A DNA stretch of 15,118 nucleotides from the NCBI GenBank assembly GCA_031280635.1, contig JAITGK010000150.1, forward strand, positions 1 to 15,118, in the 5' to 3' direction. This DNA is from Synergistaceae bacterium (lineage in GTDB: Bacteria > Synergistota > Synergistia > Synergistales > Aminobacteriaceae). The first letter of the stretch is position 1; the number at the start of each line of letters is the position of its first letter. The position numbers and the translations under genes are program-made. The notes below the pieces were generated by a model, which did no database searches, was not told where the DNA came from, and was given only the letters and a program-made list of their open reading frames with translations. This document shows, piece after piece, positions 14,309 to 14,402 of the stretch.

Positions 14309-14402
14309 CCCTGGCTCCTGGCTCCTGGCTCCTGGCTCCTGGCTCCTGGCTCCTGGCTCCTGGCTCCTGGCTCCTGGCTCCTGGCTCCTGGCTCCTGGCT
14401 CC
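14309..14402. repeat. Tandem 7-bp microsatellite (CTGGCTC)13
   Basis: Direct reading: ctggctc is iterated 13 times from 14311 to 14401 and flanked by unique sequence. ORF 14204..14431 is its in-frame translation (WLLAPGS iterated). Confidence 0.95.

Follow-up and report, generated by a model that had tools for sequence, protein, structure and literature searches.

The window, by which we mean the whole stretch of DNA analysed here, is one entire contig of 15,118 nt from a Synergistaceae MAG, and it carries a flawless, non-coding heptamer repeat that is a real feature of the sequence and lies on the 5' side of a gene for an ankyrin-repeat protein. On balance, this array is probably a young, slippage-generated intergenic heptamer VNTR of a known, functionally unexplained bacterial class. 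Strand slippage in replication would have created the array and would keep its units homogeneous; it was probably not selected as a dedicated switch, and any effect of its length on ankyrin expression would be incidental. Such an effect might arise if each unit moved the sequence upstream of it 7 bp with respect to a weak promoter at 14285-14258 or, alternatively, if added units gave a longer 5'UTR. The argument draws on the following features.

1-118, no strand assigned: second perfect microsatellite, (TGTGGCCC)14.8, with an 8-nt unit (TRF), ending exactly at the contig end
418-517, 1982-2078, 2082-2182, 10976-11080 (reverse strand), about 14471-14560 and about 14599-14690: six copies of a ~100-nt intergenic repeat (E element)
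6463-7038: pyrE, on the far side of a plus-strand SPFH/Band 7 gene
Downstream of the ankyrin gene: pyr operon (pyrR-pyrB-pyrC-pyrF), served by a strong promoter of its own at 12824-12796
12666-12778, minus strand: PyrR-binding leader RF00515 (50.5 bits against a gathering score of 54, E = 2.3e-5)
12824-12796, minus strand: near-consensus promoter TTGACT-17-TATAAT (consensus scan)
13067-14137, minus strand: ankyrin-repeat protein gene, 356 aa, GTG start (Pfam Ank families, E = 2.4e-22)
14148-14154, minus strand: Shine-Dalgarno sequence GAGGAGG, 10 nt upstream of the GTG, read from the sequence
14258-14285, minus strand: TTGAAG-16-TAACCT, candidate promoter, the best promoter-like site between array and gene (score 9.0)
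14282-14452, minus strand: 56-codon ORF through the array, (EPGARSQ)n, probably not a gene (ORF list)
14310-14402, no strand assigned: perfect heptanucleotide microsatellite (CCTGGCT)13.3 (TRF and shuffle test)
14403-15118, no strand assigned: AT-rich region (~43% GC) upstream of the array, with no confident gene (composition, ORFs)
14587-14561, minus strand: TTGGAT-15-TATAAT, candidate promoter upstream of the array (weight matrix)
14626-14600, minus strand: TTCAAA-15-TGcTATAAT, candidate promoter upstream of the array (weight matrix)

TRF returned 13.3 copies of CCTGGCT at 14310-14402, with 100% matches, no indels and a score of 186, which bears out the perfect 13-unit, 7-bp repeat of the preliminary description and moves its start from 14309 to 14310. 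A three-unit CCTGGCT probe matched the window 11 times, against 0.00 matches expected from 200 dinucleotide-preserving shuffles, and the single unit occurs at only four other places in the window. On the ankyrin-sense (minus) strand the array reads (GGAGCCA)n, equally written (CCAGGAG)n. The edge of the array stands 172 nt from the ankyrin GTG, on the 5' side, in agreement with the earlier placement about 170 bp upstream of a gene that starts at 14137 on the minus strand. The array is thus outside the ankyrin coding sequence, unlike an intragenic frameshift repeat, which lies inside the gene that it switches. Its setting is non-coding, as no supported gene overlaps 14310-14402 in ORF and Pfam checks. 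A coding reading of the array was considered and rejected: the ORFs that span it have no support and no Pfam match above noise, and such ORFs are unavoidable because all six frames are open through the CCTGGCT unit. Because the array is pure and long it should be prone to slippage, as had been proposed from the outset, and these same two properties make it very likely that its length is polymorphic in the population.

Comparison with relatives points to a recent origin. Homologues of PyrB with 88-90% identity were found on four Synergistaceae contigs (L122-L125), which represent genus-level relatives, and the pyr operon is common to all four at 70-80% DNA identity; the core of the PyrR leader (12742-12776) is 94-97% identical in these relatives, versus 70-80% in flanking coding DNA. 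Upstream of pyrR, a divergent gene with an alanine-racemase N-terminal domain is found in L122 and an amidohydrolase gene in both L124 and L125; none of the four has an ankyrin gene there, L123 covering only 472 nt. The 59.5 kb of these four contigs lack both long pure SSRs with 7- or 8-nt units and copies of the ~100-nt repeat. In the pyrR-pyrB spacer of L122 (GCA_031277095.1, 9796-9969) we observed a 33-nt tandem repeat of 5.3 copies at 89% identity that is absent in the window. The N-terminal 175 aa of the ankyrin protein had no homologue at E <= 0.001, in a search that missed the query's own protein and may be insensitive, and a search with the full-length protein returned generic ankyrin-repeat matches only, with at most 50% identity over about half of the protein. 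Since the relatives' loci are without the gene, the SSR and the repeat, and since that possibly insensitive search found no homologue of the N-terminal segment, the ankyrin gene, the AT-rich region upstream and the array appear lineage-specific and are probably recent, and a recent origin fits the purity of the array. Exact-protein look-ups with the ankyrin gene (three start variants) and with PyrC found no other copy of the locus, and a 24-mer from the ankyrin leader had no match in the metagenome contig collection.

The AT-rich region at 14403-15118 has no Pfam match above noise and no plasmid or phage match, and it holds two diverged copies of the ~100-nt intergenic repeat. The consensus of this repeat is TATAGCGGnTTGCGTAATCACGGCGCGGAAATCAGAGACCAAAAACC...AAAAGAGCCAACGGCTCTA, with a weak consensus structure, and at one place it fills the entire pyrB-pyrC spacer. 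The repeat is not in Rfam, and its 25-mer core is unmatched in the genome and metagenome contig collections.

The window holds a second pure SSR, and its flank shows no similarity to the flank of the heptamer array. This (TGTGGCCC)14.8 array lies about 400 nt past the 3' end of a Crp/Fnr-family gene (522-1184) and forms serial GGCC mini-hairpins on both strands (z about -4); the assembly probably broke inside a longer (TGTGGCCC)n array at the contig end. Two unlike pure SSRs within 15 kb suggest that long SSRs are a property of this genome and not of the ankyrin promoter.

Several other observations concern the interval between these two arrays. An insertion sequence at 2178-3030 has perfect 22-bp inverted ends (2178-2199, 3009-3030) and its DUF4096 and DDE_Tnp_1 ORFs occupy two separate frames; it could be an element with an IS5-like programmed frameshift, or a pseudogene. 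For the adjoining ORF (3014-3604) the match, TsaD/TsaB-like, is only partial, and the gene may be disrupted or chimeric. Farther on, 3600-4320 is AT-rich and non-coding (GC down to 0.37) and lies upstream of a gene for a CDC48-like AAA ATPase; a 28-nt direct repeat is found at 3594-3621/3697-3724, and the top-scoring promoter-like site of the minus strand is near 4221.

Is the heptamer peculiar to this lineage? Arrays of at least four CCTGGCT units are present in at least 120 species-representative genomes (loci L002-L121), and the matches listed include Actinomycetota, Acidobacteriota, Planctomycetota, Verrucomicrobiota, Chloroflexota, Cyanobacteriota, Gemmatimonadota, Desulfobacterota and several proteobacterial orders. 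The 123 arrays among the matches listed have 4 to 65 copies; several end contigs or adjoin N-gaps, and many are compound, with units one mismatch away (CTCCTGT, CTTCTGG and ACTCCTG, for example) on their flanks. As many as five contigs of a single listed MAG bear the array, and some MAGs have it on 3-5, among them a Desulfuromonadales MAG with L011, L012, L016, L032 and L080. The flanks of the window array matched neither the flanks of the 120 listed loci nor any plasmid or phage record. A mobile element or shared cassette was considered as the source and rejected: flanks are unmatched at the 120 listed loci, at the second SSR of the window, and in plasmids and phages. Because their flanks are unrelated, the CCTGGCT arrays are of independent origin and do not represent a mobile cassette. 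The window array thus combines the purity and copy number, the non-coding location and the independent origin without a mobile element that characterize heptameric long SSRs.

The gene context of the listed arrays was obtained with a self-written ORF caller that uses GC3 and amino-acid composition; the caller recovered the expected gene set of the window, and Pfam domains were found in 10/10 flanking ORFs in a spot check. By strict gene calls, 112 of the 123 arrays among the matches listed (91%) are intergenic. With the listed arrays oriented CTCCTGG-up, those with both neighbours within 400 nt divide into 10 (--), 7 (++), 7 convergent and 6 divergent, and those with both neighbours within 800 nt into 13 (--), 16 (++), 11 convergent and 10 divergent. 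True 3'-3' gaps hold the array at L035, L044, L047 and L058, where both flanking genes are Pfam-confirmed, and the Pfam-confirmed convergent gaps include IF-3 versus isochorismatase and GreA versus a TPP enzyme. The arrays therefore occur in all four neighbour arrangements and show no preference for promoter-bearing gaps or for the AGGAG-sense strand.

The listed loci also show an excess of period 7 at sites away from the target arrays. In their 859 kb, at more than 300 nt from the target array, we counted 49 tandem repeats of period 7, and for other non-triplet periods 2 (period 6), 6 (period 8), 8 (period 10) and 9 (period 11). In 8 of the 41 independent heptamer arrays the unit differs from CCTGGCT at no more than one position, where the null expectation is 1.9%; the remaining independent arrays have mostly unrelated units. 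In the Verrucomicrobiae MAGs at L008, L072, L075 and L078, (GCTCCTG)n adjoins a similar left flank, TTCACGCGCGC..GCCCGTGGG, which suggests a link, in that lineage, between the arrays and either a recurring sequence element or a conserved gene end.

Some evidence stands against a neutral VNTR. The array occupies the position expected of a rheostat SSR, 5' of a gene for a probably secreted protein of a host-interaction type and 24 nt ahead of the best promoter-like site nearby; a 7-nt SSR that controls a surface-protein gene has a precedent in hmw1A/2A (PMC12721329); and the cross-genome context, which comes from the self-written ORF caller, describes the class of array and not this locus.

The gene itself is well supported, its start at 14137 being identical in the NCBI protein MDR2529434.1 (356 aa, 'Synergistaceae bacterium') from the same MAG. 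Its N-terminus looks like a signal peptide when read directly from the sequence, and together with the ankyrin repeats this makes the product probably secreted. Ankyrin-repeat proteins are often linked to host or partner interaction. The secreted ankyrin-repeat protein of the preliminary description is thus upheld by the Ank match (E = 2.4e-22) and by this reading of the N-terminus; of the label 'ankyrin/SH3b' the ankyrin part stands, and the SH3b part is weakly supported, as the SH3_4 match (E = 0.049) is below the cut-off. About 50 nt before the start codon, the leader contains a predicted GC-rich hairpin (GGGGCGGUCGCGCG...CGUCGCGGCCGCC; ~14185-14215, minus strand), which could be a regulatory or stabilising stem.

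The promoter anatomy is more ambiguous. A consensus scan found no sigma-70 promoter near the array on the ankyrin gene's strand, and the candidates come from a custom weight-matrix scan in which the 99.9th percentile of the minus strand is 7.7. The site at 14285-14258 begins 24 nt downstream of the array and has a T7 tract (14300-14306) just upstream of it; a terminator made of the array and this T-tract was considered and rejected, since no terminator and no stable stem are predicted. Upstream of the array, the candidate at 14626-14600 scores 11.6 against the regional background and 14.5 against the whole-strand background, where it ranks third on the whole minus strand, and that at 14587-14561 scores 9.6 and 11.9, respectively. 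Given these upstream sites, the array could sit within a 5'UTR of ~410-460 nt; it could thus lie either just upstream of a weak promoter or inside that 5'UTR. The interval next to the gene had been called the only plausible promoter region, which does not hold, since the consensus scan is empty there and two higher-scoring sites lie upstream of the array. The proposal that each unit shifts promoter spacing by 7 bp fares better in part: a change of unit would move upstream elements by 7 bp because the candidate promoter at 14285-14258 starts 24 nt downstream of the array, but stronger sites lie upstream of the array.

Could the array nevertheless be a contingency locus? In such a locus, frequent slippage would change the unit number and the array length would set ankyrin expression, either by re-phasing elements against the promoter at 14285-14258, with 7 bp equal to 0.67 helical turn and a period of three units, or through a transcribed 5'UTR element as in hmw1A/2A. 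We consider this possible although unlikely. In its favour are a perfect array of 13 units, the position of this array 172 nt 5' of an ankyrin gene with a signal peptide, the candidate promoters on both sides of it, the nearest 24 nt downstream, and the precedent of the hmw heptamer upstream of an adhesin gene (PMC12721329); a rheostat is conceivable because the position is right and this precedent exists. Against this, the copy number comes from one assembly and the other assembly breaks inside the array, no consensus promoter lies next to the array on the ankyrin strand, and identical arrays among the matches listed show no promoter-side or strand preference, some of them occupying 3'-3' gaps. 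The heptamer families of Xanthomonas and Nostoc, which lie beside genes of all functional classes, were likewise judged unlikely to mediate phase variation (PMC4692102). The class-level evidence on the phase-variation reading is neutral to negative.

RNA folding weighs on the same side. An hmw-type 5'UTR hairpin with a complementary downstream segment is not predicted in the 301-nt leader (14120-14420, minus strand), whose fold is no better than that of shuffled sequences (z = -0.93) and in which the only pairing of the array is with itself, in steps of 2 bp. Taken by itself, each strand of the array folds worse than shuffled sequence (z = +1.2 and +1.4, the second being the value to be set against an hmw-like hairpin). 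No Rfam family reached its gathering score in the whole window, and a search of 12600-15118 at E <= 1 gave nothing notable over the array and, nearby, a chance-level lncRNA match at 14235-14301. To call the locus classic contingency architecture is thus too strong, as the closest precedent, hmw1A/2A, uses a 5'UTR hairpin and none is predicted here.

We give little credence to the array being an assembly artefact, or to its copy number being mis-estimated because the repeat was collapsed or expanded. In favour of an artefact, the sequence comes from a short-read metagenome assembly, the contig ends at its other SSR, and a Logan assembly breaks within the heptamer array. That independent assembly, of run SRR14710902, contains the same gene, leader and array junction and ends 30 nt into the repeat; the array is therefore supported, with its copy number resting on one assembly. 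Unique sequence lies on both flanks of the array within one contig, the gene-side junction is agreed by two independent assemblies, and a single read, if 150 nt long, would bridge the 93-nt array. An artefact is very improbable because the two assemblies are concordant at the junction.

Slightly less probable still is a three-phase switch in which a leader ORF from ATG 14452 changes frame with each change of unit and couples ankyrin translation to its own. The frame arithmetic holds: since 7 is not divisible by 3, every added or lost unit shifts the frame, and with n = 12, 15 or 18 units, one frame in three, the leader ORF would reach TGA 14136-14134, overlapping the ankyrin GTG, whereas at other unit numbers it stops at 14298 or 14282. 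Promoter-like sites also lie upstream of ATG 14452. In the present 13-unit state the leader ORF ends 145 nt short of the ankyrin start codon, and an in-frame TGA at 14284-14282 parts the array-spanning ORF from the ankyrin frame. Against such a switch, the required open frame arises in 11% of shuffled leaders, ATG 14452 has no well-spaced Shine-Dalgarno sequence on reading the sequence, the ankyrin gene has a strong one of its own, and with all six frames open through the unit a spanning ORF is inevitable. We know of no SSR-driven translational-coupling switch among described contingency loci.

Barely credible is an element at the RNA level, in which (CCAGGAG)n would present 13 phased Shine-Dalgarno-like AGGAG motifs that could load or sequester 30S subunits: the sense-strand sequence itself and a GGAG core kept in variant units beside other arrays (CTCCTGT, CTCCTGA, CTCCCGA) speak for it, but in the listed loci the AGGAG strand is sense versus opposite in 10 versus 7 cases (within 400 nt) and 13 versus 16 (within 800 nt), and CCTGGCT arrays also occupy convergent gaps.

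As a slippage-generated VNTR, the array would be useful chiefly as a probable hypervariable marker for strain typing of the lineage, and it adds to the record of 7-nt tandem repeats, whose excess in bacterial intergenic DNA is unexplained. The CCTGGCT array in at least 120 species, intergenic and without orientation bias, may be more reusable than the locus itself. Were the array instead to tune the secreted ankyrin protein, SSR contingency regulation would extend beyond small-genome pathogens to uncultured Synergistaceae, and a second heptamer rheostat would stand beside hmw.

How does the array compare with known systems? In Neisseria meningitidis the surface-protein gene nadA has a TAAA tract ahead of its core promoter, and the number of units re-phases upstream elements. 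The window array resembles this tract in its position upstream of a candidate promoter; rheostats of the nadA type differ in having 4-nt units, known regulator sites on both sides and experimentally shown variation. The TAACTGA repeats of marine Beggiatoaceae, Cyanobacteria and Bacteroidetes are likewise intergenic heptamer tandems spread across distant phyla, and a translational regulator has been proposed to bind them (PMC4679880). They differ in having mostly 2-6 copies a few nucleotides from start codons, whereas the window array has 13 copies and lies 172 nt away.

A closer functional model is offered by hmw1A/hmw2A of Haemophilus influenzae, in which the copy number of (ATCTTTC)n acts as an expression rheostat (PMC12721329; PMC8262952). 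In hmw the repeats are part of the transcript, where they pair with a G-rich partner as the left arm of a long 5'UTR hairpin; RNase III cleaves this hairpin (PMC12721329). The two systems share a 7-nt unit, more than 10 copies and a position ahead of a coding sequence whose exported product is of the host-interaction kind, but the window array is without a predicted partner or stable structure, and unit and organism are unrelated.

The remaining comparison is with heptameric SSRs, whose over-representation in many bacterial genomes has tentatively been ascribed to polymerase slippage (PMC4692102). The heptamer families of Xanthomonas and Nostoc are intergenic and differ in length among close relatives, and the Xanthomonas GGGAATC arrays are without a functional link (PMC4692102). 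The published G-rich heptamer families form G-quadruplexes, which CCTGGCT cannot, and have dozens of loci per genome, whereas the CCTGGCT array has one visible copy within the 15,118-nt window. In the other respects compared, the array of the window and the published families are alike: 7-nt units in tandem, a strong non-coding bias, slippage as the favoured origin and no demonstrated function.
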